The position numbers and the translations under genes were made by a program. Of a stretch of DNA of 64,000 nucleotides, positions 871 to 52,744 are shown piece after piece. The stretch is taken from contig NZ_WJIE01000009.1 of assembly GCF_009649845.1 (NCBI RefSeq), positions 96,685-160,684 of the forward strand, written 5' to 3'. This stretch comes from Polyangium spumosum. Its GTDB lineage: Bacteria; Myxococcota_A; Polyangia; Polyangiales; Polyangiaceae. The notes under the pieces are model-generated. The model did not search any database. It was given only the letters and a program-made list of their open reading frames with translations, and was not told where the DNA came from. Numbering within the stretch: position 1 is the first letter of the stretch; each line of letters starts with the position of its first letter.

Positions 871-3800
871 TCACCGAACACCCATGCCGAGCTTCTTGCG
901 CAGCTCGAGGTAGCTGGGGGAAAGCACGAACGAGAGAAGGCGGCGCGACCGCTCGTTCTCGGTGACCACCGAGCCGAGCTGATCCCGCGGCACGTTCAAG
1001 ATGTCGCTCAGCACGATCGACACGTCGCCGGCGGCGATCACCGCCATGCGGTCCAGGCTTCGCCGTGCCGCGTGTGTCCACGCGCGCGCGTCCTGCTTGC
1101 TCGCGACGACCTTCTGGCAGACCTCGCCGATGCTCTTGCGGATCTTGCGCGAGATCTCCTTGTGCACCGCGCGCTGGATCTCGCCGTAGACGGCGTAGCC
1201 GGGGTTCGCCACCTTGATGTCGACCTCGTTGCACGCCGCGATGACGACAGACGCGACCGTGGCCTCGTCGCGCGTGCGGAGCGAGGTGATCCCGCGCCGC
1301 AAGGCGAAGACCGTCCGCGCGATGGCCGAGCGCGCCGCCGCGTCGAGCGGCGTCGTGATCCCGGAGCCGATGACGATCGAGGGCACCTCGCCGGCGACGC
1401 CGTGAACGCGCATCGGCTCGGGGCCGCCGACGTAGACCTCGAAGTCACCCTCGAAGCCCACCGCGCCCATCCACTCCGCGACCGCCACGCGCAGCGGGTG
1501 GCCGCCGCGCGAGTCGACGCGCTCCTTCTTGCCGACGCCGAGCGAGCCGAGCGTCGGGCCGAGCGCGAGCGTCACCGTCTCGGCCATGAGCACGAAGAGC
1601 TCCGCGATCGGGCCGTGGTCCTCCGGATCGGCGATCTCGGCCATGGCCCTCGCGTCGAGCACGATCTGGGGCCGCGTCGCGACGCGACCGTCGATCCGCT
1701 TGAGCTCCGTGGAGATCGCGTCGTCGTCGCGGCCGAGCGAGACGAGGCAGCCGAGCGTCGCCTGACGCAGCGCCGCGTCCTGCCCTGCCTGCGCGATCTT
1801 CGCGAGCCGCTCGACGCGATCGGCGTCGCACGGATCCTCGGAGAGCTTCTGCACGAGCACGCTCTTCGCGCGGCCGAGCAGCTTCTGGCGGAGCGCCGCG
1901 TCGTAGCTCGTCGTGAGCACGAGATCGAGCGCCTCGCCGTCGTCCGGCGACTCGTCGAGCAGCTTCACGACCGCGCCCTCGGCCTTGAGCGGCTCGTTGA
2001 TCTTGTCGCGCCAGATCGCCATCGCGAGCCGCGCGGCCTCCATGCGGCCCTCGCGCTTCTCGCGCTCCTGCATGAGCTGCTCGAGGATCGCCGTCGCGCG
2101 CGACCAGGCGCCCGTCTTGGCCGCGACACGCGCGAGGCGCTCGCGCACGGGCGGCGTGGACAAACCGGCCTCGTGGAGGCCGACGAGCACCTTGAGCGCC
2201 TTCTCGGGGGCGTTCAGCTTGTTCTCGTAGATGTCCACCGCCGCGACGCCTGACATCAGCCGCTGCTGCGCCGGCGCCTCGCCGATGCCCGAGAGCCGGC
2301 CGAGGAAATCCGCGGCCTCGGCGAACTTGCCCATCGTGATCGAGATCTCGCCCGAGAGCGCGAGCGCGCCGACGTGATCGGGCTCGAGCATCGTGACGTT
2401 CTCGAGCGCCGAGAGCGCGCCCTCGCGATCACCCTTCTTGCGGAGCACGCGCGCGCGCTCCCAGAAGAGCTTGCCGATCTCTGCCTCGTCGTCGGCGACG
2501 TCGAGGCGGCGCCCGATGATGTCGAGCAGCCTGTCGTCCTCGTTGCGCCCGCGGACGCGGCGGAAGAGTTTGTCGAAGGCGATCGAGCGGCTCGGGTCCC
2601 GATCGAACGCCCGGGCGAACGCGATCTCCGCGTCGTCGTGCGCGTCGGTGTGCTCGAGCAGGATGACGCCCGCGGACTCCCAGAACACGGCGCCCCGCGT
2701 ATCGTCCCGGCTGAGCGCGCCGAGCTGCGCGAGCGCGAGCGCCGTCGACACGTGATCGCCGAGCGCCTCGCTCGCCGCGCGCACGCCTTCCCACGACACG
2801 ATGTCGTCCTGGCGCCGCTCGACGGCCGCGCGGAAGGTGGCGAGCGCCGCCTCCACGTTGCCCGCCGCGAGCTCCGACCAGCCGGCGAGCGCGGCCGCGT
2901 CGTGACCCGCGTCCTCGCCGAGCGCATGGCTCACGTTCTTCAGGGCGAACGCGCGGCGGCGCGGATCGCAGCCGGGCATCGCGAGCTCCAGGTTCGCGAG
3001 GCGCGTCGCGTCCGACGTGCCGGCGAGCATGGGCTGCGGCGTGCTCGGCTGATCCAGCATCGCCACGAGCGCGGCCGACGCATCCATCGCCGACCACGGC
3101 TCGTCGTCGAGGAACGCGCCCACCGCGCGGCGCGCGGACACCTCGGCCTCGCGATCCTTCGCCGCGAGCGCCGCGCCGAGCCACTCGAGCGCGGCGTAGA
3201 GCTTCGGCTCCGCGTCCGCCCAGGCCGCCGCGCGCGACACCGCCGCGCCCGGGTCCTGATCGACCACGCGCGCCAGCCGGTACGCCTCGGCCCGCGCGAT
3301 CGCCGTCGCCTCGTCGCCCTGATCCTCCAGCCGATCGAGCGCGCGATCGATCGCCGCCCGATCGCTCTGCGCATCCGGCCACGTGAGCCGCGCGAGCCCC
3401 GCGGCGACCGTGATGTCGCCCGAGCCCTCGGCCTCCGCCGTCTCCAGCGCCGTCAGCGCCTCGGCGCGATCCCCCGCCTCGCCCTGACCGACCTCCAGGC
3501 CGAAGCGCTCGATCGCGATGCTCGCCGGATCTGCGCCTGCCTCCGCCGCCGTCACGAGCGCGCGGCGACGACCGTCGAGGCTGTCCGGATCGGCCCCGCG
3601 CAGCGCCCACGCGAGCAGCGCCGCCGCCGCCTTCGAGGCGCTGCCGCGCGCCTGCTCGACGAGCTCGATCGTCTTCTGCCGATCGCCGAGCCGCCACGTG
3701 AGAAGCGCAGCTTCCAGGTAGAGCGCCGCGCCGAGCTCGATGTCCTCGGTCGACGTCGCGCACGCCGACAGGATCGTCGACGCGGCCGTGAGGTCACCCG

Positions 3801-13284: not shown

Positions 13285-14364
13285 TCACGGCCGGCGTCGC
13301 GGCTGCAGGCGCGGCAGGCCCGCGGCCGCGCGCCCCGCGGACAACGTCGCGGAGGGGCTCTCGCCGAACCGGCGCTTGTATTCGACGCTGAATCGCCCTG
13401 GATGACCGAGCCCGAGCGCGGCCATGACGCTCGCGACCGATGTACTGGCCGAGGGCTCGGCCAGGTGGCGGCGCGCGAGCTCGAACCGGCGCCGACGCAG
13501 GAAATCCATCGGGGGCATTCCCCGGCACGCCACGAAGGCTGCCCGGAGGGACCGCTCCGGCGCGCCTGCCGCGGCGACGATGTCGGCCAGGGTGATGGGC
13601 TCCGCGGCGTGCGCGGCCATGAATTCCTCCGCCCTGCGGACGCAATCCGGGGCCACGCGCGGCTGCGGCGCATCGAGGATCGCCGAATGGTTGTGCCGGG
13701 TGTGTACGAGGAGGCTCGTGAAGAGCGCGCCACGCAGCGCGCCGAGCACCATCGGCGAGGCCCATGGCTGCTCGATCTGGCGGCGAAAGAGCTGCGCGAC
13801 CTCGTGTACCGTGCTCCCCGGTCCGTCCTCGAGGTCGAGCGCCACATCGAAGCAGATCGGGCCGCGCAGCGCAGCGCCCGTGAGCGCGGCGAAGTGGGCG
13901 TCGAGCGCTCCGCGATCGATCACCAGGGTCCGCCCGTGAAACGCCGCGGTGACATCGATGAAGCAGGACCGCCCTGGTGAAAACAGCGCACCCCGCCGGC
14001 CCGGCGCGACGTGGAAGGGCTCGCCCGCGTGGTCACCGGCGCTCTCTCCTTCGTCCGAGAGACACAGGATGTAGTGCTCCCCGCTGTCCGGCAGGGAGGC
14101 CTGCCCTCCGCCGGCCCAGTCGCCCATCACGACACGGGTCGCGCCGAAGGAGACGAAGCCCAGCGCACAGCCGAAAGTTTGGTCGCGCTTGGGCTCGAGG
14201 GTCGCCTCTGCATAAACGTGGCTGAAGACCTCCCGGGCCTCGCCGACGTCGCTGGTGCACACGAGCTGAGCCCGCGCAATCCCGGCCTCCTGCGCCGCCG
14301 TGGCGCGCGAGGGCCCTTCAGCTCGAGGGCTTGTTCGGTCGAACCGACGCGCACCATCCGGCAT
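13285..14364 (-). CDS. AraC-family transcriptional regulator (start uncertain)
   Basis: C-terminal twin HTH (ITLADIVAAAGAPERSLRAAF...MPPMDFLRRRRFELARRHL...SVASVMAALGLGHPGRFSVEYKRRFGESP). N-terminal ligand-binding-like region. Confidence 0.75.
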   Translation of the reverse strand: MPDGARRFDRTSPRAEGPSRATAAQEAGIARAQLVCTSDVGEAREVFSHVYAEATLEPKRDQTFGCALGFVSFGATRVVMGDWAGGGQASLPDSGEHYILCLSDEGESAGDHAGEPFHVAPGRRGALFSPGRSCFIDVTAAFHGRTLVIDRGALDAHFAALTGAALRGPICFDVALDLEDGPGSTVHEVAQLFRRQIEQPWASPMVLGALRGALFTSLLVHTRHNHSAILDAPQPRVAPDCVRRAEEFMAAHAAEPITLADIVAAAGAPERSLRAAFVACRGMPPMDFLRRRRFELARRHLAEPSASTSVASVMAALGLGHPGRFSVEYKRRFGESPSATLSAGRAAAGLPRLQPRRRP

Positions 14365-14443
14365 TGGCGAGGAAGGAAGCGCAAGTATTTCGAGGATGTC
14401 AAGCGATTGCGAGCCCTGCGCACGTCCTCCCTCAGCCCGTCCT

Positions 14444-14715
14444 CATCCTCCCGCAGGCTGATTTCATCCTCCCGCAGGCTGAACGCATCCTCCCGCCAGG
14501 CCGATTTCATCCTCCCGCCGGGCTGACCTCATCCTCTCGCAGGCTGATTTCCTCCTCCCGCCAGGCAGACCTCATCCTCCCGCAGGCAGACCTCATCCTC
14601 CCGCCAGACCGACCTCATCCTCCCGCCAGACCGACCTCATCCTCCCGCAGGCAGACCTCATCCTCCCGCAGGCTGATTTCATCCTCCCGCATGCAGACCT
14701 CATCCTCCCTCCCTG
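14444..14715. repeat. minisatellite: about 13 tandem copies of a degenerate 21-22 bp unit (CATCCTCCCGCAGGCTGATTT / ...CCGCCAGACCGACCT)
   Basis: Read directly in the sequence. Lies in the intergenic region between the divergent AraC gene and the small gene at 14790. No unique spacers, so it is not CRISPR. Confidence 0.85.
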
Positions 14716-14789
14716 ACGAGATCGTGCTGCCCCTGAAGGAAATCTCCGTCGCCGGCGTCTCTCCCGCACCCCAACAACGGAGGTGCTCG

Positions 14790-15287
14790 ATGACGACGAC
14801 GTACGCCCCTTATACAGGCCCCATGGACGCGACCCTCACCGACGTGCAGGACGACCTCGTCGACCTCGCCGCTGGAGCCTCCAAAGGCTTCCGCGGCGTC
14901 CAGCCCGGGATCGAAGGTGTCTGCGACGAGCTCGCGGGCTCCGTCGCCGTGTTCGGCGAGGCCGCCGGCATCTCCCCCAAGCTCTACGAGCGGTTCGTCG
15001 GCGAGACCAAGAGCATCGACGCCCTCGTGAAGAAGGAGGCCATCCTCGAGAAGATGCTCGAGGCCACCCGCGAGTCCCGCCGCCTCAAGACCCACCAGCG
15101 CGAGAACACCATCGCCCAGATGGTCGACATCACGAAATCCACCGCCCAGCGCACCGGCGACAAGGCCCTCCTCGCCCCCTTCGAGAAGACCATCCGCTAC
15201 AACGCCCAGACCGCGCTCCGGGCCGCCAAGACCCGCCGCAAGAACAAGGCCGCGAAATCGGAGGCCCCGTCAAGCTCCGAAGCGTGA
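14790..15287 (+). CDS. hypothetical helical protein (165 aa), immediately upstream and co-oriented with tssJ
   Basis: GGAGGTG RBS 6-12 nt upstream of ATG at 14790. Balanced amino-acid composition. The upstream part of tracked ORF 14331..15287 runs through the minisatellite and is rejected. Confidence 0.6.
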   Translation: MTTTYAPYTGPMDATLTDVQDDLVDLAAGASKGFRGVQPGIEGVCDELAGSVAVFGEAAGISPKLYERFVGETKSIDALVKKEAILEKMLEATRESRRLKTHQRENTIAQMVDITKSTAQRTGDKALLAPFEKTIRYNAQTALRAAKTRRKNKAAKSEAPSSSEA

Positions 15288-15456
15288 GCCCGCCCGGGCC
15301 CCGCCTCGCCCCGCTCGCCTCCTCCCGCCCCCCCGTCCCGCCCCCTCGGCCACCCCACAGCCGTCCTCTCTAACCCATCGTTTCCATTCTCCTCCGCGCC
15401 CCGTCTTCGCGACTTTGTAGACCCGTCCCGCACGATCGCTCTACCCTTCACGTCGC

Positions 15457-29377: not shown

Positions 29378-32300
29378 ATGACGACCGAAGACCAGAGCCA
29401 GGGCGCCACGGAGAGCATTCCGAGCAAGCTCGGGAAGTTCGCGCAGGAGCAGATCGACAAGGCCGAGGTCACGGTCACGAAGGGCGTCTCCACCGTCCGC
29501 GACTCCACGAACGGGATCATCGGCAAGGCCGAAGAGCAGATCCTCAAGCTCAACAAGGCCCTCTACGAGACCAAAAACGGCATCTCCTCCGGCATCGACA
29601 CGGCGATCAAGGAGACCGAAGGGCAGCTCAAGGGCATCACGCCCGAGCTCAAGAAGATGGGCGAGGACGCCATCGCGTCCGCGAAGTCGAAGCTCGACGG
29701 GCTCGTCGGCGAGGTCGAGGGCAAACTCGAATCGCAGAAGGACTCGCTCGTCACGACGGCGAAGGATCAGATCCAGAGCGCGGCCGACGCGGCGAAGGGC
29801 AAGATCGACGAGATCGGAGAGCTCGGCGAGGAGCAGGCGACGAAGGTCCTCGACGCGGTGAAGGCGCAGGCCGACACGGTCGAGCAGAAGCTCGGGGACA
29901 TCGCGGGCGAGATCGACGGCAAGATCGAGGCGATCGGCGACGACGTCCGGAGCAAGTTCGAGGCGGCGATCGCGAAGGTTCCCGATCACGACGGCGCCAA
30001 GGCCGAGATGTCGGCGAACATCGACGCCGTCGTGGGCGAGCTACGCGAGGCCACGAAGGGCTCGATCGATCAGGCGCGCGAGACGCTGAAGAGCCTCGTC
30101 CAGCAGACCGACGACACGATCAAGCAGACGATCGGCGACGTGCGGCGCGCGATCGGCGAGGTCCCGACCCGCATCAACCAGTGCGCGCAGGACATCCTCG
30201 CGAAGGTCGACGACGCCATCCAGAAGACGATCGACGAGATCGCGAACCTCGCGCGTGGTCTCGTCGCGCGCACGGCGGAGCTGCTCAACGAGGCGCTGCT
30301 CACGATCACGAGCACGATCGACAAACTGCTCGCCGACGGCTTCGCGCTCGTGCGGGGGATCAAGGCCGACCTCGATCGGCTGCTCGACCAACTGCTCGAG
30401 CAGATCCGCGACCTGACGCTCGGCACGCTCGAGGACGTGCGCAAGGCGGCGAACGAGCTTCTCGGCACGTTCGAGGCCGAATGCAAGAAGATCCTCCAGA
30501 CGATGGAGGACTCGGTCATCGTCTCGGTCGAGGAGCTCGGCGGCAAGATGAACGCCTCGATCAAGGCGCTCCAGGCCGACTTGAACCTCGAGGCGGACAA
30601 GATCGTCCGGGACCTCGTGGCGGAGGGCGCGAAGGGGCACGACGACGCGCTCGCGGACTTCATCAGCGCCGGTTATGAAGAGGACACCTCGGTCATCCCC
30701 AAGATCCGGGCCAAGGGCGAGGCTGCGATCAAGCAGATCGAGGCCAAGACCAAGGCGCAAGGGGAGAAGCTGATCAAGGACTTCGAGCTGCAAGCGACGC
30801 TCTTGAAGCCGAAGATCCAGGCGCAGGGCATCAAGGTCATCGCGCAGATCGCCGCGCTCGGACCGAAGCTCGCGATGCAGGCCATGCAGATCGCGACGAG
30901 CATCGCGTCGTCGATCAAGGACAAGGGCGAGGCGGTCAAGAAGACGTTCGAGGAGCTGCAATCGACGCTCGTCGACGCGATCACGAAGAAGATCCCCGAT
31001 TACCTCGAGAGCTGCAAGAAGCAGATCAAGGCCGCGGCGGACGCGCTCGTCGAGGCGGGCAAGACGTTCTACGAGAAGACGCTCGCCGACATCATGGGGG
31101 CGATCAAGGCGGCGGAGCAGCGGTTCAAGCAGCTCGCCTCCGAGATGAAGGACCTCATCGAGACGCAGGTGCTCGAGCTCGTGGCCTCCATTCGCCGGAC
31201 GGTGGAGACCTCGATCCAGCGCTTCAAGGACCTCGGCGCGGCGTTCGAGGACAAGACGAACGCGCTCGTGAACGACATCCCGGCGCGGATCCTCAAGCTG
31301 GAGCAGGTCGCGCGGACGGCGGTCGAGAGTCAGATCGCGCTCGCGCAGGGGCTCGCGAATGCGACGAAGGAGGACATCCTCCTCAAGGCGCGGACGGCGC
31401 TCGCGGAGATCAAGAAGGCGGCGTACGGGGTCACGGCGGGCATTTCGGGTGATCTGGGCGCATTGAAGGGGACGCTCGCCGCGATCGTGCCGGCGGGCGG
31501 GGGGCTCGACGCGGCGGGGGCGATCAACCTCGTGGTCTCGGGCGGGCTCGAGCAGATGGTCACGTCGGCGGCGAACGCGGCGTCCGCGGCGGTGACGGCG
31601 GGCGTGAACGCGGCCGAGGCCGTGAACAACGCGGCGGAGCAGGCGGCGGCCGCGATGGGGGCGGCGGGGTTCGAGGGCGCCTCGAAGGCATTGACGGACG
31701 TGCTGAACCAGCAAATGGGGGAGGTGCGGACGGAGGGCGAGAAGGCGAAAAACGTCATCGCCGCGGCGAAGGAGAAGACGATGGCGGTCGCCAAGGAGGC
31801 GAACGACGCGTGCTCCGAGGCGGCGGCGGCGGCGCAGGCCGAGGCGGCGAAGGTCGTGGAGGCCGCGCAATCGACGGGCGACGCGATCAAGGCCTCGGCG
31901 GACAACCTGACGAAGAGCCTCGAGAAGGCGAAGGAGATCGTCAAGGACGCCGGCAAGACCGCGATGCAATCGATGAAGGAGGCCCAGGACGCGCGCAAGG
32001 GCGGCGACGGCGCGCAGGCCGGCGCGGGGGCACAAGCCGGGGCGGCGGCAGGCGCGGACGCGGGTGGGGCGGACGCGGCGGCGGACGCGGGTGGCGCGGA
32101 GGCGGCGGCGGACGCGGGCGGGGCGGAGGCGGCGGCGGATGCGGGTGGCGCGGAAGCTCCGGCGGCGGAGGCGGCGGCTCCCGAGGCAGCGGCTCCCGAG
32201 GCCAAGGCAGAGGTTCCGGGCGCCAAGGCAGAGGTTCCGGGCGCCAAGGCAGAGGTTCCGGGCGCCTCGAAACCGGAAGCGGGCGCCGATGTAGCGGCGC

Positions 32301-33091
32301 CGGCCGTCCCGAAGGCGCCTCCGGGCGCCAAGGTGCCGGAAGCGGCCGCCAAGGTACCGGAAGCGGGCGCCAAGGTACCGGAAGCGGGCGCCAAGGTACC
32401 GGAAGCGGGCGCCGGTGTAGCGGCGCCGGCCGTCCCGAAGGCGCCTCCGGCCGCCAAGGTACCGGAAGCGGCTGCCAAGGTACCGGAAGCGGGCGCCAAG
32501 GTACCGGAAGCGGGCGCCGGTGTAGCGGCGCCGGCCGTCCCGAAGGCGCCTCCGGCTGCCAAGGTACCGGAAGCGGCCGCCAAGGTACCGGAAGCGGCTG
32601 CCAAGGTACCGGAAGCGGCTGCCAAGGTACCGGAAGCGGGCGCCAAGGTACCGGAAGCGGCTGCCAAGGTACCGGAAGCGGGCGCCGATGTAGCGGCGCC
32701 GGCCGTCCCGAAGGCGCCTCCGGCCGCCAAGGTACCGGAAGCGGGCGCCAAGGTACCGGAAGCAGCCGCCCCTGCGGCGGCGCCGGCCGTCCCGAAGGCG
32801 CCTCCGGCCGCCAAGGTGCCGGAAGCGGCCGCCAAGGCAGCGGTCCCGGGCGCCCCGGCGGCCGCCCCGAAGGCCCCCGAACCCCCGGCCGCGCCGGCCG
32901 ACGCCGCGCTCTTCGCCCCGAAGGCCGCGCCCGCGGCGCCCAAACCCCCGGCCGCGCCCGCGCCGCCCGCCGCTCCTTCCATGCCCGGCGCCGCGAAACC
33001 TCCCGCCGCGCCCGCCGCGCCCGCCGCCCCCAAGCCCGTCCTCCCCGGCGGCGGCAAATGGCCCGGCCCCGGCGGCAAGCCCGGCCCCTGA
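29378..33091 (+). CDS. large (1237 aa) Lys/Glu/Ala/Ile-rich all-helical protein of unknown function with C-terminal AKVPEA(A/G) tandem repeats and a Pro/Ala-rich tail; T6SS-operon-associated
   Basis: Starts 54 nt after the tssG stop on the same strand. About 900 aa of amphipathic-helix/coiled-coil-like sequence. Then about 25 perfect 8-aa repeats. Composition is atypical for this genome (high Lys/Ile). Confidence 0.75.
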   Translation: MTTEDQSQGATESIPSKLGKFAQEQIDKAEVTVTKGVSTVRDSTNGIIGKAEEQILKLNKALYETKNGISSGIDTAIKETEGQLKGITPELKKMGEDAIASAKSKLDGLVGEVEGKLESQKDSLVTTAKDQIQSAADAAKGKIDEIGELGEEQATKVLDAVKAQADTVEQKLGDIAGEIDGKIEAIGDDVRSKFEAAIAKVPDHDGAKAEMSANIDAVVGELREATKGSIDQARETLKSLVQQTDDTIKQTIGDVRRAIGEVPTRINQCAQDILAKVDDAIQKTIDEIANLARGLVARTAELLNEALLTITSTIDKLLADGFALVRGIKADLDRLLDQLLEQIRDLTLGTLEDVRKAANELLGTFEAECKKILQTMEDSVIVSVEELGGKMNASIKALQADLNLEADKIVRDLVAEGAKGHDDALADFISAGYEEDTSVIPKIRAKGEAAIKQIEAKTKAQGEKLIKDFELQATLLKPKIQAQGIKVIAQIAALGPKLAMQAMQIATSIASSIKDKGEAVKKTFEELQSTLVDAITKKIPDYLESCKKQIKAAADALVEAGKTFYEKTLADIMGAIKAAEQRFKQLASEMKDLIETQVLELVASIRRTVETSIQRFKDLGAAFEDKTNALVNDIPARILKLEQVARTAVESQIALAQGLANATKEDILLKARTALAEIKKAAYGVTAGISGDLGALKGTLAAIVPAGGGLDAAGAINLVVSGGLEQMVTSAANAASAAVTAGVNAAEAVNNAAEQAAAAMGAAGFEGASKALTDVLNQQMGEVRTEGEKAKNVIAAAKEKTMAVAKEANDACSEAAAAAQAEAAKVVEAAQSTGDAIKASADNLTKSLEKAKEIVKDAGKTAMQSMKEAQDARKGGDGAQAGAGAQAGAAAGADAGGADAAADAGGAEAAADAGGAEAAADAGGAEAPAAEAAAPEAAAPEAKAEVPGAKAEVPGAKAEVPGASKPEAGADVAAPAVPKAPPGAKVPEAAAKVPEAGAKVPEAGAKVPEAGAGVAAPAVPKAPPAAKVPEAAAKVPEAGAKVPEAGAGVAAPAVPKAPPAAKVPEAAAKVPEAAAKVPEAAAKVPEAGAKVPEAAAKVPEAGADVAAPAVPKAPPAAKVPEAGAKVPEAAAPAAAPAVPKAPPAAKVPEAAAKAAVPGAPAAAPKAPEPPAAPADAALFAPKAAPAAPKPPAAPAPPAAPSMPGAAKPPAAPAAPAAPKPVLPGGGKWPGPGGKPGP
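32200..32840 (+). repeat. intragenic perfect 24-bp tandem repeats (GCCAAGGTACCGGAAGCGGGCGCC...; about 25 copies, encoding AKVPEAGA/AKVPEAAA)
   Basis: Visible directly in the DNA; interspersed GVAAPAVPKAPPAAKVPEA variants. Likely copy-number variable. Confidence 0.85.
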
Positions 33092-35234: not shown

Positions 35235-37235
35235 TCAGTTGATCTTCACCATGCCGCCCTTCAAGGTCAGCATGCCGCCGCCCTCCACGGCGGCCTGCGC
35301 GCCGCCCTTCGCCTTCAGCGCGATCGCGCCCTCGAGCGTCATGTTCGTCCCGCCCTTGGCCTTGAAATCGGTGCCGGCCTTGAGCGTCATCCCCGTCCCG
35401 CTCTCGGCCTTGAAGTCCGTGCCCGCCTTCATCGTGAAGGCCTGCTTGGCCTTGATCGTCACGCTCTTCGCCTCGATCACGAGGTCGCCGTCGACCTTGA
35501 TCGTGTAGTTCTTCGTCACCTTGTAATCGAGGTTCGCCTTGTTCGTGTGCGCCTCGTCCTTCGTGACCTCGAGCGTGCGTTTGCCCTTCACGGCGTGGAG
35601 CTCGTCGCCCTTGTCCACCTTGATCGTGCGGTTGCCCTTCGTGACGGTGAGCGTCTCGTCGCCCTCCTCGATCGTCACCTTCCGCTCGTTCTTGACGTTC
35701 ATCGCGACATCGTGGAGGACCTTCACGGTCCAGTCGTTCTCCACCTCGAAGAGCATGTCCTTCTGGGCGTGCGCGTAGAACTCCTCGTTATCCTTCTTGT
35801 CGTCGAAGCGCAGCTCGTTGCCCGCGTCGCCCTCCTTCGAGGAGCGGCTCAGGATCGTGCTCTTCGTCTGCATGTCCGGCAAACCGTAGGGCACCGTCTG
35901 CTCGGCGTTGTACACCGAGCCCGTCACGAGCGGCCGATCCGGGTCGCCGTCGATGAAGCTCACGACGACCTCCTGCCCGATCCGCGGCAAGAACCACGTG
36001 CCCCAGCTCTTGCCCGCCCAGGCCTGCACCACGCGCACGAAGCACGAGCTCTTGTCGTCCTTCGCGCCCTTGCGATCCCAGTGGAACTGGACCTTGATGC
36101 GCCCGTATTCGTCCGTCCACTGCTCCTCGCCGCTCTTGCCCACGACGACGGCCGTCTGCGTGCCCGGGATCGCCGGCTTCGGCGTGATACGCGGCGCGCG
36201 GTACGAGGTCTTCTTCGGGAACGCCTCGAAGGTATTCGTGTACCCCTCCTGGCTCGCCCGGTGCGAGACCGAGAGCAGCACCCAGTCGGTGTTCGCGTCG
36301 TCCCGATCATGCTCGTCGAGCTTGAACGCGTGCCCCGCCGTGAACGCGCGGCACGTGGACGTGCCCGCCAGACGCACGGCCCGCGCCTCCTCGGCCTCGA
36401 TGCGCAGCTTCGCCCGCGCGTCCCCCGGGCTCTTCTCGACGTGACCGCCCGGGTATTCGAAGAGCTCGAGCTTGCCCGATTCGCCCGCGACCTCCGCGAG
36501 GAGCGACGTGCTCGGCATCTCGAAGTTGTAATCCGTCGCCGCGTATTTGCCCGCGACGATCTCCTCCTCGAGCGTGCACTCGAGGACGGCGTCCTCGTCC
36601 GTCGACGTGGAGAACTGCTCGACGAAGCGCGCCTTGTCGAGGTTCGGGCACGCCGCGGCCGACGCGCTGTCGTCGGAGAGCACCATGACGTGCTTGCCGT
36701 CCTCGTGCGCGAAATAATAGTGGATGCCCTCGTCCTCCATGAGGCGCGAGACGAAATCGAGCGCGGTCTCCTGGTACTGCACGCAGTACGGGCGCGGCGT
36801 GTAGGAGCCCTTCAGCGAATCCTTGAAGTGCTCGCCCGACGAGAACCCGAGCTCCTGGAAGAGCTCCTTCAGGATGTCGGGCACGCTCTTCTCCTGGAAG
36901 ATGCGGCAATCGCTGGTCTTGCCGAGCAGCCATAACCACGGGTGCAGCTCCGCCCGGTAGCGCGTCTGCTTGCCGACCCGCCCCGCCTGGACGAACCGCG
37001 TGCAGATCCCGTGGATGAAGCGCGGCTTCTCCTTCGCCATGCCCCGCACGGTCAAGGTCACGCCCTTGCCGACGATCGCCTTGAAGTCGAGGGCCTTCTC
37101 CGGCGAGACGAGCTCGAGCTCGAAGCGGAACAGCCCCGAGATCCGCTCCTCCCCGTGCAGATCGACGAGGAGCACGGCGTCGGGTCCGAACGGCGTCGCG
37201 ATGCCGATGCCAAGTGTGCCCTGCGGATAAGGCAT
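35235..37235 (-). CDS. vgrG: VgrG (TssI) spike protein; no C-terminal effector extension
   Basis: 666 aa. gp27/gp5-like VgrG core (LFRFELELVS..., SVSHRASQEGYTNTFEAFP, WAGKSWGTWFLPRIGQEVVVSFIDGDPDRPLVTGSVYNAEQ). C-terminal gp5 beta-helix repeats (TLEVTKDEAHT...VTKNYTIKVDGDLVIEA...). Confidence 0.9.
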   Translation of the reverse strand: MPYPQGTLGIGIATPFGPDAVLLVDLHGEERISGLFRFELELVSPEKALDFKAIVGKGVTLTVRGMAKEKPRFIHGICTRFVQAGRVGKQTRYRAELHPWLWLLGKTSDCRIFQEKSVPDILKELFQELGFSSGEHFKDSLKGSYTPRPYCVQYQETALDFVSRLMEDEGIHYYFAHEDGKHVMVLSDDSASAAACPNLDKARFVEQFSTSTDEDAVLECTLEEEIVAGKYAATDYNFEMPSTSLLAEVAGESGKLELFEYPGGHVEKSPGDARAKLRIEAEEARAVRLAGTSTCRAFTAGHAFKLDEHDRDDANTDWVLLSVSHRASQEGYTNTFEAFPKKTSYRAPRITPKPAIPGTQTAVVVGKSGEEQWTDEYGRIKVQFHWDRKGAKDDKSSCFVRVVQAWAGKSWGTWFLPRIGQEVVVSFIDGDPDRPLVTGSVYNAEQTVPYGLPDMQTKSTILSRSSKEGDAGNELRFDDKKDNEEFYAHAQKDMLFEVENDWTVKVLHDVAMNVKNERKVTIEEGDETLTVTKGNRTIKVDKGDELHAVKGKRTLEVTKDEAHTNKANLDYKVTKNYTIKVDGDLVIEAKSVTIKAKQAFTMKAGTDFKAESGTGMTLKAGTDFKAKGGTNMTLEGAIALKAKGGAQAAVEGGGMLTLKGGMVKIN

Positions 37236-38992: not shown

Positions 38993-41900
38993 TCACTTGC
39001 ACTTGTCCACGAGTTCCTTGCACGGATCGATGTAGCTGGCCGACATGATCTTATCGAGCTCCTTGTTCACGAAGCTCAGGAAGGTCTTGTCGTCGATCCA
39101 GTCGCGCGCCCAGTCGCGCGTGCCGATGATGTCGAGCCGCTGCCGGATGTCGTGCGCGAGCCCCTCGATCGAGCTCGAGTCGCGGAAGATGTCCTTGCGG
39201 GCGTCGATCTTCGCCGCGAGCGTCTGCGCGATCTTCTCGGTGGACCATTGCGTGTCCGGTGTCCACGCGCTCCCGGACTCCGTGAACACCCGGATGTTCA
39301 GCCCGTCGGTGAGTTTGTCCTCGAGGATCTCCTCGATCTGGCTCCGCGTGATGAAGGGGGCCGTGTAGGGCTCGTCCGGCCATTCGAAGTCCCCGAGGTC
39401 CTCGGCTTCGATGAACGTCTGCTGCGAGACGTGGTTGCCCAGCCAGCCGCCCGGGCCCACCGACGCCTTGATCTTCCCCGCGAGCCCCGTCCAGCTCATG
39501 GAGCTCTTCATCGAGAAGCCTTCCCGGCTGTGGATCTGGAGCTTCCCCTGGAATTCGAACCCGCTCTCCAGCGTGGCCTCGAATTCGACGCAGCTCCCTG
39601 CCTGGACACGCGCCCCCACGGCGCCCGCGATGCTCAAGGTGAACGGGATCGCGACGGTGGCGTCCACGCCCGGGCTGACGCGCTCGATCTCGTAGTTGAT
39701 GGAGACGCCCCCCTCGATCTTCGCGAAGAGCTGCGCCTTGAAGCTGCAGCTCGCGATCCCGACGCCGATCTCGGCGGAGGCCGAGAACAGGTTGAACTGG
39801 AAGATCAGCTTCGCCCCGGCGTACGCCCGTTCGTCCTTGTATTCCTTCTGCTGCCATTCGAGGTTGAAGACGCCCTGGAGGACCTGGAACTCCCACTGGG
39901 CATACCAGCCGATCTTGGGGACCGCGTCCTGGATGCCCTTCATGATCTTGAGCGCGTGCTGCACGAGCCCCACGATGCCCAGGATCGGCTGGATGACGTC
40001 GGCCGCGTTGACGAGCGACTTGCCATCCATCGTGATGGTGACGCCCTCCCCGAAGGGTTTTTTCTCCGCCCCCTTCTTGGGTTTTTCCCAGCCGGCTGGC
40101 TCCTCGAGCGACTCTCCTGCGTCGACCCACGCGAGGCCCTTGCTGCCGTCGGAGAGCGTGACCTCGTCGAGCTTCTCCCCGAGCTTCGAGCCCATCTTGG
40201 CGCTGCGCACCTTGGGCATTTTGATCGCGAGCGCGAGCTTGTTCGGCGCGTAGACCGCGATGGTGAGGGGCTTTTCGAATCCCTCGACCTTGTACTCCGT
40301 CGCCGCGGTGAAGGCCTTCCAGAACGTGGCGCCGAGGATGTTGTGGCCCAGGGTGCCCTTGAACGCGACCTTGACGTCGTATTGCGTGTAGCCCTCGCCC
40401 GCGGCCTTCCCCTGCACCGTGACCTTCTCGCCCCCGCGCGACACCGTGATCGCGCTCGGCGAAGGCTTCGCGCCGCCCCGGTAGAGGAGCGTCACCACGT
40501 CCTCGAGCGTCTGCGCGTCGGGGACCACCTCGAAGCGGGCCACGTTTTTCACGCGGCTCTTTCGGCTCGCGAGCTCGTGCGCGCAAAAAACGACGAGCTC
40601 GCTCTCCCCCGCGCCCGTCGTCGCCCCGCCCGACGTCGAGCCGGCCGTCTCGCCCTCCTCGGACGTCTCCTCCGTCGCCTCGTTCTCCGCCGGCGGCGCC
40701 TGCAAAAGCGAGAGCGTGCGCCAGTGCTCGATGAGGCCGATCGGGTGCAGGTGCCAGACCTTGTCCTTCGAGGGCAAACCCGCGCTCGATGCGTCTCCCC
40801 AGAAGCCGAGCTTCTTGATGTACTCACGCGTCGTCGCGAGCGACGCGTCGTCGAGGTTCCACGGCGGCCCCTTCAATCGATCGAGCCCCGGCACCTCGCC
40901 GGCCCACTCCGTCGGATGCAGGCACGCGATCCGCCGCAGCTTCTCGGCGATCGCGGGGTCCTTCAAGGCCGCCTTGATCTCCGCCGCCGAGACCTTCCCG
41001 TCCTTGTTCTCGTCGACGAGCCCGAGCAGGCTCGGCGCGTCGCAGAGCCCATCCTGGCTGAATTTGCCGGGCTCCTCGATCCGCTGCCAGCGCGGCCAGT
41101 CGTACGCGAAGAGGACCTTCGTATCCTTGTCGACTTCGATCCAGCCCTTCCCCCCGCCGAAATCCACCTCTTGCCAGACCTTGCCCTCCTTGTCCTTGAA
41201 GACCCGCGCGTCCGAGGCGGGCAAGATCTCGGTGAAGATCTCCGCCGCGTTCGAGCCCGCCCCGTCCTCGAACACGACCGCGCCGTCGGGTTTTTCCTTG
41301 GAAAGGACGGGCAACGCGCTCTTCAGCGTGTAGCGCGACGTCTTGCCGTCCCAGTCCCCGAGCAGCTCGCGCTTCGTCCAGCCCGTGCGTTTCTCCTGCT
41401 CCGCTTTCGGGAGCACATACCGCACCTGGCGGTCGCTCTCGCCCTTCTGCGCGACCCAGTACACCTTCGCGCCCTTCGGCGCGTTGATTTCAATCGTCGC
41501 GCCCCCGCCGGGCTCGGTCGTGAGCGTCGCGAGTGGCGCCGCCAGCGTATACGCCGCGCTCCCCTGGTCATACGCCCCGAGCAGCTCGCGCTTCGTCCAT
41601 CCCACGGCCTCGCTGCAAGCGACCTTGCGCAGATCGCCGGGCGGCTGCTCCACGAGGCTGAGGCGTGCGCCGGCGGGCCAGTCGACCTTCACCTCGGGCG
41701 GCGTGACGTTCTTGCGTGTCTTGAACTTCGTGCCCGCCGCGATCTGCAAGAGCCCCGGGCCGCCCTTGTCGCCCTTGGGGTTCTTCATGAACTCGACGTC
41801 GCCCGTCAGCACCTCGAAATGGGTCGTCGCCGGCCGCGTGAAGAACACGCCCGGATACCCGAGAATGGCGCCCGCCGTGACCGGGATCTTGCACGCGACC

Positions 41901-44017
41901 ACCTGATCGAACTTCTCGGGCTCGAGCTTGCACTCGTATTTGATGTTCGGGTCGCCCTCGCCGCCCACGTAGACCCAGCCGCCGCCCGAGAGCTCGTGCC
42001 AGCCGGTCCCGATCTTCCCCCCGGGCGCGACCGCGTTCGGGTCCTTGAAGCTCACCTCCTCGCCGAGCTTGGCCACCCGCAAGACCTTGCTCCCCCGGCC
42101 CGTCTCGCGCACGTTGAGCCCCCCCGAATCCTCGGTGGTCGCAATCGTGAACTTGTGCTTCTTGAACATCACGGGCGGGTTCTTCTTCTGCGCGTCGGTG
42201 TACTCCTCGAAAGGCAAGAGGTGCATCACCAGCGAGAAGAGCTCGAGCTTCGCGCCCTTCGGCGTGTACCGCTCGTGCCGGACGAGCACGAAGCCATTCG
42301 AATACCGCATCGGCTCGCCCGCGAGCTCCACCTCGAGCGCCTTCTTGTTGATGCGATACGCCACGATGTCGCCGTCGGCGATGGCCTGGAGCGCATCCGC
42401 GCCCGCGTCGAGGTGCACGCCCCCGTGCCAGAAGTTGTTGGCCCCGATGGGGAAGAACCCGCCCTCGCCCCCCTCGTTCAGCGAATAATGGGCCTCGGCG
42501 TCCTTGCCGACGATCGGGAGGCGGATGCTCGCGCTCGCGCTCGCAGGCGTGAGGAAATCCCCCTCGACGAGGGTGTAAATGAGCGAACGCGTGCCGTCCT
42601 TGGCCGGCTTGCCGGAGAGCTCGTTCTGGAGCGTGCCCTTGATCGAGGTGTCCGCCTCGATCTTCTTGATGAAATCGACGTAGCTCTTGATCCCCGCGAT
42701 CACCTGGCAGCCCGCGGACCAGGCGCGGCTGCGGTCCGCGGCGACCAGGCCCGTGTCGCCGCCGTAATGGATGTTGATGTCGCCCGCGTCGTACGCCGTC
42801 GCGTGGGTGTCGCCGACCGCGCCGACCTGCTCCTCGTCGCCGACGAGCGCCGTCCGTACGGTCGGGTCCGGCCGGAGCGCGCGATAGTTCTTCCCGCTCA
42901 GGTCCTTCCCCGTCATGCCGTCCTTCAGGCTGACGTGTGTCCCGTACCGCGAGATCCCGTGATTGCCGAGCGCATACTTGTGTTGCCCGAGCAAGAGCAC
43001 CGACTGGCTGCCCTTGATCGTCCACTCCGTGGTGCACTGGTAGAGCGCGACCTTCTTCTGCCCCGCCGTCGTCTTGTAGACGAGGAACATGCAATCGTCG
43101 TACTTCGTGTTCGTGCTCTGGACCGGCTTCTTCTCCTTGTGATCGAAGCCGCGCGCCGCGAGCAGGTTCACGCGCCCGTTCTCGTCCTGGAAGTCGTACG
43201 CGCTTTTCCCCTCGTTGCCGAACCGCTTCTGCGCCCGCTTCCACACCTCGCGCAGGTGGTCGTAGAGCACGTCCTCGGGCATCGTGGAGAGGTCGAACTG
43301 CGTCGTCGGCTCGCGATACACCACGAGCGGCGCGTCGTCGTCGTCGTCGTCCTCCGCCCCCGTGCCGCCGGCCTTCTTCAGGAAATCCGAGCGATCGAGG
43401 ATGCGCCAGTTGTACCCGCCGCGTTGCGCCACCGCGAACGAGCCGTCCGCGTTCCGGGGCTTCTGGTTCTTGAGGTTGGTATTGTCCCTCCAGTAATCGA
43501 GGTCGTGGATGAGCGCGCAGAAGCCCGGGTAATCGTTGTCCTTGACGCAAGCGACGAGCCGCGGGTGCTTCGTCGAGAGGTCCCCGCGATACGCGAGGTC
43601 GACGAGCACCTCCTTCATCGGCGTCGGGTACTTCTCCCAGTCGCCGCCGTAGTCCGCGACCCTCGTCTTCGCCTTCTCGACGTAGGCGGGATAAATCTTC
43701 TGGTAGAGCGTCTTCGCGACGTCCTTCGAGATCGTCGGCAGGCTCGCGACGTTGTCCGCGACCCACTTCTTGGCCGCGTCCCCCTTCTTCCCCGCGCCAT
43801 TGCTCAGCTTCTCCGCGTCGGCCGCGGACACGCCCGCCGCGACGAGGTCGGCCTTGACCACCGCCTTCGTGCGGCCCCCCATGTCGTAACCGGCCCCGAG
43901 CGTCACCCCGGACGCGGCCGAATCGGGCCAATGTACCTCGAGGATGTCCTTGGTGTTGCCCCCCTCGACGGCGAACGTGAGCTCGGAGAAATGGGGGAAG
44001 ACGTGGGTGCCGCTCAT
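38993..44017 (-). CDS. giant (1675 aa) putative polymorphic toxin / T6SS cargo effector: lysozyme-like (GH24-like) N-terminal domain, EF-hand-like loop, hydrophobic beta-rich C-terminal domain
   Basis: ATG at 44017 (MSGTHVFPHF...), an internal Met of tracked ORF 38993..44140. N-terminal region resembles phage lysozyme (E...D...T spacing, then KEVLVDLAYRGDL...LVACVKDNDYPGFCALIHDLDYW). EF-hand-like loop DENKDGKVSAAEIKAAL at about 40955-41014. Duplicated GWTKRELLG modules. C-terminal Gly/Ala/hydrophobic segments. Lys-rich, lower-GC composition than neighbours. Confidence 0.75.
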   Translation of the reverse strand: MSGTHVFPHFSELTFAVEGGNTKDILEVHWPDSAASGVTLGAGYDMGGRTKAVVKADLVAAGVSAADAEKLSNGAGKKGDAAKKWVADNVASLPTISKDVAKTLYQKIYPAYVEKAKTRVADYGGDWEKYPTPMKEVLVDLAYRGDLSTKHPRLVACVKDNDYPGFCALIHDLDYWRDNTNLKNQKPRNADGSFAVAQRGGYNWRILDRSDFLKKAGGTGAEDDDDDDAPLVVYREPTTQFDLSTMPEDVLYDHLREVWKRAQKRFGNEGKSAYDFQDENGRVNLLAARGFDHKEKKPVQSTNTKYDDCMFLVYKTTAGQKKVALYQCTTEWTIKGSQSVLLLGQHKYALGNHGISRYGTHVSLKDGMTGKDLSGKNYRALRPDPTVRTALVGDEEQVGAVGDTHATAYDAGDINIHYGGDTGLVAADRSRAWSAGCQVIAGIKSYVDFIKKIEADTSIKGTLQNELSGKPAKDGTRSLIYTLVEGDFLTPASASASIRLPIVGKDAEAHYSLNEGGEGGFFPIGANNFWHGGVHLDAGADALQAIADGDIVAYRINKKALEVELAGEPMRYSNGFVLVRHERYTPKGAKLELFSLVMHLLPFEEYTDAQKKNPPVMFKKHKFTIATTEDSGGLNVRETGRGSKVLRVAKLGEEVSFKDPNAVAPGGKIGTGWHELSGGGWVYVGGEGDPNIKYECKLEPEKFDQVVACKIPVTAGAILGYPGVFFTRPATTHFEVLTGDVEFMKNPKGDKGGPGLLQIAAGTKFKTRKNVTPPEVKVDWPAGARLSLVEQPPGDLRKVACSEAVGWTKRELLGAYDQGSAAYTLAAPLATLTTEPGGGATIEINAPKGAKVYWVAQKGESDRQVRYVLPKAEQEKRTGWTKRELLGDWDGKTSRYTLKSALPVLSKEKPDGAVVFEDGAGSNAAEIFTEILPASDARVFKDKEGKVWQEVDFGGGKGWIEVDKDTKVLFAYDWPRWQRIEEPGKFSQDGLCDAPSLLGLVDENKDGKVSAAEIKAALKDPAIAEKLRRIACLHPTEWAGEVPGLDRLKGPPWNLDDASLATTREYIKKLGFWGDASSAGLPSKDKVWHLHPIGLIEHWRTLSLLQAPPAENEATEETSEEGETAGSTSGGATTGAGESELVVFCAHELASRKSRVKNVARFEVVPDAQTLEDVVTLLYRGGAKPSPSAITVSRGGEKVTVQGKAAGEGYTQYDVKVAFKGTLGHNILGATFWKAFTAATEYKVEGFEKPLTIAVYAPNKLALAIKMPKVRSAKMGSKLGEKLDEVTLSDGSKGLAWVDAGESLEEPAGWEKPKKGAEKKPFGEGVTITMDGKSLVNAADVIQPILGIVGLVQHALKIMKGIQDAVPKIGWYAQWEFQVLQGVFNLEWQQKEYKDERAYAGAKLIFQFNLFSASAEIGVGIASCSFKAQLFAKIEGGVSINYEIERVSPGVDATVAIPFTLSIAGAVGARVQAGSCVEFEATLESGFEFQGKLQIHSREGFSMKSSMSWTGLAGKIKASVGPGGWLGNHVSQQTFIEAEDLGDFEWPDEPYTAPFITRSQIEEILEDKLTDGLNIRVFTESGSAWTPDTQWSTEKIAQTLAAKIDARKDIFRDSSSIEGLAHDIRQRLDIIGTRDWARDWIDDKTFLSFVNKELDKIMSASYIDPCKELVDKCK

Positions 44018-44058
44018 GATGCCACCGGACGTGGGATGATACACGTCGGCGCGGCGGA

Positions 44059-45603
44059 TCACTCCATCAAAAGACCCATCCGCGCGAAGCGCAGGAGCTT
44101 CTGCTCGGTGATCTCGGCGAAGACGTCGGCCGACACGCAAGGCGCGCCGTTCATCTCCACCGACACCTCGCCGCGCCGCGCCTCCTCGAGCGCGGCCTCC
44201 GTGAGCGCCGCGGCGTCACGTGTCCCGTCCATCCGCGCGAGGATCACCCGATCGAAGCTGTCGACCTGCACGCCCTCGTGCAGGAGCGTCGTGCAAAACG
44301 GGCTGCCCACGCTCGCCTGGTAACGCGCGAACGAAAAGGCCCGCGGGCGCTCGCTCACCCCACGCGCGACGGGCTTCGGCGAGGCCCAGAGCCGGAGCGC
44401 GTTTTTCGTGTACAACCCGAGCAGGTTCCGCGCGAGCCGCGCCCGCGCCTCCCCCTCGAACGCGGCGAGCCCGAGCCTCTCGCCCGCCTCCCAGGCGAGC
44501 GCGTCGAACGGCAAGCCCCCCGGCGCGCGCGCCGCGAGCGCGACGAGCGCGGCCTTGAGCGTCGCCTGATCCGTGGAGATCGTGCCGCCCGGCCCGAGGA
44601 ACGTCTCCTCGACGCCCTCGCCGAGGTTCGGGCTCGTCGCGCCCGGCGTGAGCGGCGAGGCGACGACGAGCGGAAAGAGGCGATCGACCGAGACACGGCG
44701 CGAGATCGCCACGTCGTCGCGGCAGAGGACGGCGCGGCGAAAGCAGCGGAGCTCGAGCAGGTCGAGGGATTGCTGCATGGCCACGACGTCCCCGCCCGAC
44801 CGCGCGCGTACGGCCTCCGCGGCGGCGGGGCCGAGGCGCTCGGGGAGGACGAGCGGGACGTGCGCGTCGGTGACGAAGGCGAGCCCGGCGTCCTGCATGT
44901 CGCGGGCGAAGTCGGAGAAATACTCGGCGCGGTTGTACGCGACGAGGTGCTCGCCGAGCAGGTAATCGTCCGCGAGCTGGCCGAGGGTCTGGAGCTCGCT
45001 CGCGAGCCAGGCGCGCGCCGGATCGGCGGCGAGGGTCTCGGCGGCGCCGAGGAACTGCAAAAAAGCGCGCGCCTTCACGACGCGCTCGGCGGCCGATCCT
45101 TCCGCGCCGACCTCGCGGCGGAGCATGTCGCGCAAGGCGCCGCGCAGGTGCCAGCCGGGGAGGGTATTGAAGCTGATGTAGGCGAGCCCGTGGGGCGCGA
45201 GGTGCCTGCGGACGAGGCGTCGCAGGGCCGCGCGCGCGTCGTCGGGGATCCACGAGTACACGCCGTGACAGACGATGTAATCGAAGGAGGCGGGCTCGTC
45301 CTCGAATTCGCGGACGTCGGCGAGGTGGAGGGCGAGGTTCTGGAGCCGCGCGCCCTCGGCGTGCTTGCGGGCGACGGCGAGCGAGTCTTCGGCGCGGTCG
45401 AGGGCGACGAAGCGGCTCTCGGGGAAGGCGGCGGCCATGGGCAGGACGTTGCCGCCGGTGGCGCAGCCGATCTCGAGGAGGCGGCAGCGAGCGGGCGGAG
45501 CGGGCCGGAGGCCGAAGAGGGCGCCGACCGCGCCGAGGTGGTCGGGGTGTGTCTCGGCGAAGGGCAGGGCCTCGTAGAAATAGTCCTCGTTCGGGGGGGC
45601 CAA
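44059..45603 (-). CDS. class I SAM-dependent methyltransferase with C-terminal methyltransferase-regulatory-like domain (start uncertain, possibly TTG at 45603)
   Basis: C-terminal 510 aa of tracked ORF 44059..46536. SAM-binding motif region (RLLEIGCATGGNVLPMAAAFPESRFVALD...FDYIVCHGVYSWIP). The 5' part of the tracked ORF is an off-frame read through a repeat region. Confidence 0.7.
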   Translation of the reverse strand: MAPPNEDYFYEALPFAETHPDHLGAVGALFGLRPAPPARCRLLEIGCATGGNVLPMAAAFPESRFVALDRAEDSLAVARKHAEGARLQNLALHLADVREFEDEPASFDYIVCHGVYSWIPDDARAALRRLVRRHLAPHGLAYISFNTLPGWHLRGALRDMLRREVGAEGSAAERVVKARAFLQFLGAAETLAADPARAWLASELQTLGQLADDYLLGEHLVAYNRAEYFSDFARDMQDAGLAFVTDAHVPLVLPERLGPAAAEAVRARSGGDVVAMQQSLDLLELRCFRRAVLCRDDVAISRRVSVDRLFPLVVASPLTPGATSPNLGEGVEETFLGPGGTISTDQATLKAALVALAARAPGGLPFDALAWEAGERLGLAAFEGEARARLARNLLGLYTKNALRLWASPKPVARGVSERPRAFSFARYQASVGSPFCTTLLHEGVQVDSFDRVILARMDGTRDAAALTEAALEEARRGEVSVEMNGAPCVSADVFAEITEQKLLRFARMGLLME

Positions 45604-45709
45604 GCGTTTTCTCCGGGAGGGCGGGCACCTTGGCGAGATCGGGGTGCGGGCGCAAGTGTTTGCCTTCCCGGGCCAGCCTGCCCCATGCTGCTCGCCCGTC
45701 GGTCTGCGT

Positions 45710-46609: not shown

Positions 46610-46697
46610 CCTCACCCACCAGCCCCCTCTCCCGCCCCCCAACCCCCTCACCCCCCAACCCCCTCTCCCGCGGGGCGGGAGAGGGGGAGGGGAGCGG

Positions 46698-52640
<5,943 letters not shown>

Positions 52641-52744
52641 CGAACCTCGACCTCCACGCGCGACACACGCCGGGGAGCTACGGACGCGGCCAGGCCGCAA
52701 GGAAAAGGAGTTATTGTGACCATGCTAAGGCCGGCGACGCCCCG

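Follow-up and report, generated by a model that had tools for sequence, protein, structure and literature searches.

A conserved array of 21- and 22-bp repeats upstream of an uncharacterised gene family in Polyangium spumosum and its relatives

A gap of 425 bp (14365-14789, 64% GC) on the chromosome of Polyangium spumosum is mostly filled by short direct repeats. Which gene do these repeats belong to, and do they act as DNA, as RNA, as coding sequence or not at all? The gap is part of a stretch of 64,000 nucleotides, the window of this analysis. On one side it is bordered by a gene for an AraC-family regulator (13285-14364, minus strand; Pfam HTH_18 and AraC_binding_2), whose AndR-like match falls below the NCBIfam cutoff. 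On the other side lies a divergent gene (14790..15287, plus strand) for a 165-aa protein, assigned to an uncharacterised, all-helical family by homology and an AF2 model. A T6SS cluster follows downstream of the 165-aa gene, with a lipoprotein ORF in the TssJ position, TssK, TssL/DotU, TssM, TssA, TssB, TssC, Hcp, TssE and TssF, and VgrG further on. The flanks given in the initial annotation, an AraC-family gene (-) and a 165-aa gene (+) separated by 425 bp, hold.

Tandem Repeats Finder (TRF) places the array at 14425-14709 (plus strand), with a period of 21, 13.3 copies, 83% matches and a score of 336. A second TRF report on the same array gives a period of 43 with 6.3 copies (score 373), and autocorrelation peaks at lags 21/22/43/65. 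With unit boundaries set by the TCCTC anchor, the array resolves into 13 head-to-tail units of 21, 21, 21, 22, 22, 21, 22, 21, 22, 22, 21, 21 and 21 bp. The 21-bp form occurs eight times and the 22-bp form five times (mean 21.4). TRF, the unit table, a motif search and autocorrelation all support the array, whose consensus is TCCTCCCGC[C]AGGCTGACCTCA; the 22-mers result from an extra C after CCGC. The unit core TCATCCTCCCGC is almost invariant across the array. Within the unit, TCCTCCCGC is conserved in 12-13 of 13 copies and the 3' part varies (GCTGATT, GCAGACC, ACCGACC), the variable alignment positions being 15 (T/A/C) and 18-19 (TT/CC/AC). On the strand that carries the downstream gene, the array is rich in C. 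The 13 full units are followed by a partial 14th (TCCTCCCTCCCTG, 14703-14715, plus strand). The first unit (14425-14445, plus strand) is degenerate, which is why the TRF limits are slightly wider than the 14444-14715 reported initially for what is the same array. The 13 copies first counted in most of the 425-bp gap agree with TRF and the unit table. Unit lengths had been put at 21-23 bp; 21 and 22 bp are found, and none of the 13 units measures 23 bp.

The unit is confined to this place. The 18-mer CATCCTCCCGCAGGCTGA, with up to 3 mismatches, has seven matches in the 64-kb window against 0.11 expected, all within the array and none elsewhere. A scan of a genome collection returned 33 single chance matches from unrelated taxa, with no P. 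spumosum contig among them. Dispersal over hundreds of loci, earlier named as the mark of a generic genomic repeat, is not observed within the 64-kb window, where no copy lies outside the array.

The array is non-coding, because the mixture of 21- and 22-bp units shifts the reading frame, stop codons interrupt three of the six frames, and the start codon and RBS of the 165-aa gene at 14790 are conserved across species. The same conclusion had been drawn from unit-length heterogeneity, and frames, stops and the conserved start confirm it. On these grounds a coding heptad (7-aa) repeat is ruled out. An ORF of 318 aa running through the array is an artefact, since the annotated protein has 165 aa and starts at the conserved start/RBS at 14790. 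Arrays of this kind explain a recurrent mis-annotation. In family proteins P0044 and P0065, spurious extensions at the N-terminus, e.g. (PDDELVL)n and (VHVERAD)n, are translated arrays, and ORFs of 115-119 aa over the arrays of loci L005 (3587-3946) and L006 (3616-3963) are very likely the same translation artefact.

The adjacent regulator gene is the obvious first candidate for a partner. The array begins 61 bp from the AraC-gene ATG in the divergent region, and the promoter of that gene must lie in or next to it. AraC-family proteins bind direct-repeat half-sites 21 bp apart at araI (araI1/araI2), where 2-4 half-sites are present. The spacing is the same here, and an AraC-family gene adjoins the array in P. 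spumosum. The repeats could thus be operators for this regulator that control T6SS expression, as the initial annotation had considered. The number of units (13) differs from the araI arrangement, however, and the neighbourhood is not conserved. The AraC gene adjoins the array only in P. spumosum and is absent from this position in all four other Polyangium species with an array or its remnant. Upstream neighbours there include a WHH/SUKH toxin-immunity pair, a 227-aa gene, a 1207-aa gene and an unrelated 355-aa gene. BLASTP of the AraC protein against the 359-aa (L003) and 355-aa (L004) neighbours yielded E values of 0.36-1.7, so these are unrelated. Because the upstream neighbour differs in each Polyangium species, the AraC gene is a species-specific neighbour. 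The distal array end coincides with a synteny breakpoint in all five Polyangium species and in every comparison made, in line with the recombination hotspot proposed earlier.

Control of the T6SS is contradicted by two further observations. Distant homologues carry the array without nearby T6SS genes, and the gene in the tssJ position has a promoter-like block of its own. This block (TTTGTAGACCCGTCCCGCACGATCGCTCTACCCT, 15414-15447) is invariant in four Polyangium species and immediately precedes the tssJ-position ORF. It reads TAGACC-N18-TACCCT about 9 nt before the ATG and may be the promoter of a near-leaderless T6SS transcript. The block points to a separate promoter for the T6SS structural genes at 15414-15447; the array is then probably not a T6SS switch, and a T6SS-specific element was rejected. 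Synteny largely refutes the operator reading for AraC and T6SS, as far as gene order can tell, and this reading is considered very improbable. The tempting inference that the array serves the neighbouring AraC gene or the T6SS operon is very probably wrong and is corrected here. Of the regulator-binding, iteron-like sites first suggested, a set of protein-binding sites stands as the most plausible interpretation; AraC as the binder does not, on account of synteny. The gap of 170 nt separating the 165-aa gene from tssJ shows no terminator-like hairpin, and consensus scans for sigma-70 promoters and terminators were negative there and likewise in the window, L005 and L006. The gap contains a C-rich repeat (GCCCCGCCC, about five copies) at 15298-15343.

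The linkage that persists is the one to the 165-aa gene. In Polyangium sp. 15x6 (L001), P. jinanense (L002) and Polyangium sp. y55x31 (L003), an array with periods of 21/22/43 bp occupies the roughly 400 bp directly upstream of the orthologue; the L003 array is degenerate. TRF detects nothing in Polyangium sp. 6x1 (L004), where a weak 22/43/64-bp periodicity remains by autocorrelation. The window unit hardly differs from unit A of the arrays in 15x6 and P. jinanense (CCTCrTCCTyCCGCAGGCyG). Homologues with 39-58% identity, located in other genomic contexts and without T6SS link, again have an array of 21-22-bp units upstream. A Polyangiaceae MAG (L005) harbors 12.7 copies of a 21-bp unit (CGACGACTTCGCCAACCAACG), and L006 has a 22/44-bp array (GGACGAnnTCGTCC). 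The unit CGACGAAGTCGTCGACCCGAC (21 bp) is present in 10.3 copies in L040 and in 10.8 copies in L052. L041 carries a 22-bp array, L042 6.5 copies of 21 bp and L043 16.6 copies of 22 bp (GTCCTGCAGGACGGCGCCCCTT); arrays in L044, L045 and L053 are short or degenerate. In all, 13 of the 14 lineages were found to carry an array just before the family gene, and its relatives across the Polyangiaceae are among them. When the 390 nt upstream were autocorrelated, the top lags were 21, 22, 43 or 64-66 in 16 of 17 loci. Across arrays, the mean unit length ranges from 21.1 to 22.0 bp.

The position is as constant as the period. In 96 kb of family loci, every array with a period of 20-23 bp and at least three copies lies just upstream of a family gene, while 243 kb of unrelated control loci contained one small array of period 20-23. 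The arrays end about 80-180 bp before the start codon. These comparisons show that the array is conserved, and with it the period, the location and the link to the gene. The 165-aa gene is the only gene consistently linked to the array. By sequence comparison, the array is assigned to the 165-aa gene and not to AraC or the T6SS, and its association with the gene is judged to be old and independent of the T6SS. The distant family members L046, L047, L049 and L057 (Chondromyces crocatus) have no adjacent array. In L057, a 15/31-bp repeat (GGGTGGTCTCTCTCA, 4.5 copies) and a 21-bp repeat of 2.7 copies occur at 3402-3547, 450-600 nt upstream. A description of this array element was not found in the searchable literature.

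The 165-aa protein is 100% identical to a hypothetical protein of P. spumosum and has 11 close homologues, although exact look-ups with proteins of the window gave no entry. A profile search with the family recovered 263 cluster representatives at E<=1e-3 (50% clustering). All members looked up, one from Chondromyces crocatus included, are named 'hypothetical'. The protein has no match in Pfam, NCBIfam, PHROG or PADLOC. Its AF2 model (pLDDT 85.6) is all-helical, with a long hairpin formed by H63-122 and H125-158. PDB searches returned only generic coiled-coil matches, with no recognisable DNA-binding fold. A C-terminal basic motif, KTRRKN, is invariant. One subfamily (P0040; loci L046 and L047) is fused to a C-terminal response-regulator receiver domain, and this subfamily lacks the array. 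The fusion hints at a signalling or regulatory output role for the family; together with the invariant KTRRKN it gives hints that the linked protein may be a regulator. P0021 contains the family domain as a tandem duplication. A plasmid or phage origin was rejected, as no homologue occurs on plasmids (PLSDB) or viral contigs (IMG/VR).

Period and position are kept, and the sequence of the units is not. Unit sequences turn over between species (concerted evolution), with the sense strand remaining C-rich in 12 of 13 consensus units. Units of several lineages have perfect arms of 5-6 bp, e.g. CGACGA-AG-TCGTCG, GTCCTG|CAGGAC, CGTGCT-N5-AGCACG and TCCTC-N4-GAGGA. The commonest core is GACGAnnTCGTC, which builds the array units of the distant loci L005, L006, L040, L041, L052 and L053 and is kept as an invariant proximal site in Polyangium. 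Because it is common to proteins whose identity to the query is only 43-55%, it is probably ancestral. In P. spumosum the unit shows no significant palindrome: the best arms measure 3 bp, as in shuffles. The units of P. spumosum thus appear to have lost the palindrome, with one invariant copy left next to the gene.

The number of units changes as well. L040 and L052 originate from different metagenomes and are nearly identical: over 2645 nt of upstream sequence there are 8 mismatches, and over 538 nt of downstream sequence 3. Their arrays, with 10 and 11 units, are set apart by exactly one 21-bp unit at the distal end. Whole units are gained and lost through slippage or unequal recombination, and the copy-number change envisaged earlier is observed at a homologous locus. 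L053 and L054 encode an identical protein. Their upstream sequences are identical over 503 nt but for one SNP, and unrelated exactly from the distal array end; downstream, near-identity continues for about 1.1 kb beyond the gene start before fading gradually. A mobile cassette was rejected for this pair, the gradual decay being ordinary recombination mosaicism. In both comparisons the arrays behave as variable-number repeats and as rearrangement boundaries.

Such dynamics could suggest a functionless, slippage-prone minisatellite which persists beside the gene by continual expansion and contraction, with no selected role. Whole-unit changes between near-identical strains, the turnover of the unit between species, the degenerate arrays of L003 and L004, the absence of arrays from distant members and the window unit without a significant palindrome are all compatible with it. 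However, position, C-rich strand orientation (12 of 13 consensus units), the 21-22-bp period and the GACGAnnTCGTC core persist down to about 40% protein identity. Neutral minisatellites are expected to last far shorter than this divergence. No such arrays occur elsewhere in the same loci, and a neutral origin is regarded as rather unlikely.

Classical phase-variable promoter tracts, e.g. the TAAA tract of Neisseria nadA, have units of 1-9 bp. The array resembles them in that the number of repeats upstream of a promoter can change by slippage, as seen in the one-unit difference between L040 and L052. It differs by its unit of 21-22 bp, its conservation over deep divergence and the binding-site-like cores of its units. 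The unit is much too long, and the array too old, for a classical phase-variable tract. A phase-variable promoter spacer, also put forward initially, does not fit: the 285-bp array lies upstream of the promoter region and is too long for a -35/-10 spacer.

Between array and gene, two short blocks are conserved. A proximal site (GACGAGATCGTGCTGCCCCT, 14715..14734, plus strand) emerged from the alignment of five Polyangium species. Within it, the ancestral palindrome-type motif (GACGAnnTCGTG) survives in P. spumosum as a single copy. The copy, GACGAGATCGTG, is located at 14715-14726, 64-75 nt upstream of the ATG, and GACGAnnTCGTGCT is invariant in the five species (alignment A2). The second block is a leader, CGTC..TC.CGCACCCC, with the RBS GGAGGTG (14779-14785) directly before the start codon (14756..14789, plus strand; invariant columns of alignment A2). 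A -35-like hexamer, TTGACG, was read by eye between array and gene in seven loci, and in the receiver-fusion subfamily, which lacks the array, a clean TTGACG-N17-TAsAGT promoter occupies the corresponding position. A consensus sigma-70 scan detected no promoter in the window, L005 or L006, so the promoter position relative to the array is given by weak by-eye matches. The proximal site is a candidate operator which would overlap the -35 region. Sigma-54 and ECF readings of the conserved leader, likewise by eye, were discarded, the GG or -35 element not being conserved in L003/L004.

An element acting as RNA was considered in addition. Transcription of the array would yield a long 5' leader of the 165-aa gene, an antisense RNA or an independent RNA, which would form hairpins or a repeated platform for proteins or ribosomes. 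Palindromic units in L003, L006, L040, L042 and L043 could form hairpins, and in several loci both strands of the array fold better than shuffled sequence. Variants in the arms of L043, e.g. TTGTCC/GGACGG, would keep pairing via G-U on the sense strand. The minus strand of the window array folds with z = -5.2. Its sense-strand RNA, however, is less stable than shuffles (z = +2.3), by which an array of sense-strand hairpins was rejected for the window; values for L001, L002 and L040 are near zero. Promoter-like TTGACG hexamers downstream of the arrays also speak against a transcribed leader. The strict period of 21-22 nt fits the DNA helix and has no obvious rationale in RNA. A known RNA family was dismissed, as no Rfam family matched at gathering score and the only sub-threshold match was sR60 with 17-19 bits versus 50. 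An RNA role is less likely and is viewed as improbable.

A DNA-level element is favored, because the period of 21.1-22.0 bp is held despite sequence turnover, the cores have dyad symmetry, the position is fixed and the proximal site is conserved. The array is proposed to be a cis-acting DNA element of the promoter region of the 165-aa gene, made up of about 13 helically phased protein-binding sites; a probability of roughly 0.5 is given to this interpretation. In general terms, the array is most likely an undescribed multi-site protein-binding control region, and from its layout it looks like a cooperative multi-site operator or an upstream activating array. Sites repeated every 21-22 bp, i.e. 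every two helical turns, would all point to one side of the DNA. They would be filled cooperatively by a protein that recognises a specific DNA sequence and is probably a dimer. The complex would end at the conserved proximal site (14715-14726), abutting or overlapping the -35 region, and occupancy would thereby set transcription of the 165-aa gene. Gain or loss of units would tune the number of sites. Since the AraC promoter must lie in or beside the array, occupancy in P. spumosum could act on the divergent AraC gene as a side effect. As the binder, the product of the linked gene itself would be the most economical choice, acting by autoregulation or self-loading, because the adjacent gene is the only conserved partner. 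The fold of the 165-aa protein provides no independent support for self-binding. A dimer on a palindrome fits the relatives better than the P. spumosum array, whose unit has no significant dyad symmetry.

On plasmids and phages, tandemly arrayed binding sites are a familiar feature. Theta-plasmid iterons, as in R6K (seven 22-bp repeats), pPS10 and RK2, are accompanied by a Rep operator at the rep promoter. The present array shares with them direct repeats at 21-22-bp spacing and a distinct symmetric site by the promoter of the adjacent gene. Unlike iterons, it is chromosomal and conserved across species at the same gene. The genes flanking the array encode no Rep-type initiator or Rep domain, and the gap 14365-14789 contains no DnaA box (TTWTNCACA) and no AT-rich unwinding region; the lowest GC over 30 nt is 43%, located outside the array. 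A plasmid iteron origin was rejected for the lack of Rep, DnaA box and AT-rich element in a gap of 64% GC.

Plasmid centromeres are a second comparison. The parC sites of R1 (bound by ParR) and pSK41 and sopC of F (bound by SopB) are arrays with an autoregulating binder; sopC consists of twelve 43-bp repeats, each with an inverted repeat. The likeness extends to about 10-13 helix-phased tandem units, a 43-bp super-period in this array, internal palindromes in relatives, a varying number of whole units and a location beside the gene of the presumed binder, overlapping or abutting its promoter. Traits of a partition centromere are accordingly present, namely phased units with a mean of 21.1-22.0 bp, 43-bp super-units and a place upstream of the family gene in 13 of 14 lineages. 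In contrast to parC and sopC, the element is located on the chromosome and does not occur in collections of plasmids and viruses, no NTPase partner of the ParA/ParM/TubZ type is conserved nearby, and the linked protein is a predicted helical hairpin with no RHH, HTH or ParB fold. A partition centromere of the parC/sopC/tubC type was rejected, given no conserved NTPase and only generic coiled-coil similarity of the linked protein.

A related explanation assigns the array a mainly structural role. The coiled-coil 165-aa protein would polymerise on its own array as an architectural, centromere-like loading site for DNA organisation, tethering or a switch. Arrays of 10-17 phased units, the 43-bp super-period in the window, L001, L002 and L041, the occurrence of array and gene as a self-contained pair in varied contexts and a long helical hairpin with an invariant basic tail are consistent with this role. 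Neither a partner NTPase nor another conserved neighbour was found, though, the family is absent from plasmid and viral collections and no DNA-binding fold was recognised; a mainly structural role is deemed unlikely. A further-reaching proposal, held only tentatively, regards the 165-aa helical hairpin as the founding member of a new DNA-binding class. The protein would load cooperatively on its own phased array as a chromosomal 'iteron/centromere-like' nucleoprotein switch, kept across the Polyangiaceae and recruited in Polyangium to the head of the T6SS cluster.

With respect to the preferred interpretation as phased protein-binding sites, it is unusual for a chromosomal array to retain its spacing of two helical turns, its orientation and its place through the whole history of an uncharacterised gene family, all the more as the sequence of the array turns over and its copy number varies. 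Array and 165-aa protein represent a concrete pair of cis-element and protein for myxobacteria, in which promoter architecture is poorly understood.

The window contains other repeats. A 21-bp repeat of 21 copies at 32322-32770, with super-periods of 63/84/105/126 bp, lies in a 1237-aa ORF of the T6SS cluster (29378-33091, plus strand) which has weak sub-threshold apolipoprotein-like matches. The repeat is coding (AKVPEAA-type heptads) and unrelated to the array. Equally unrelated is a 21-bp repeat of 20 copies at 45817-46235, which encodes AKSGTELAKAREE heptads in a 321-aa protein (ORF 45644-46609, plus strand) with an N-terminal hydrophobic segment. A 165-bp repeat of 12.9 copies (48430-50564) encodes cysteine-rich modules of the CxxGxDxDCDG type in a 2000-aa protein (ORF 46698-52700, minus strand). 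Near VgrG, ORFs are located at 38996-44140 and 35238-37235 (both minus strand); a 1715-aa protein with an N-terminal pesticin/lysozyme-like domain is encoded here and is a likely T6SS effector. Between convergent genes at 46635-46700, a C-rich repeat (CCCCCCAACCCCCTCA, 2.2 copies) is followed by its G-rich complement, and this long inverted repeat may act as a terminator.
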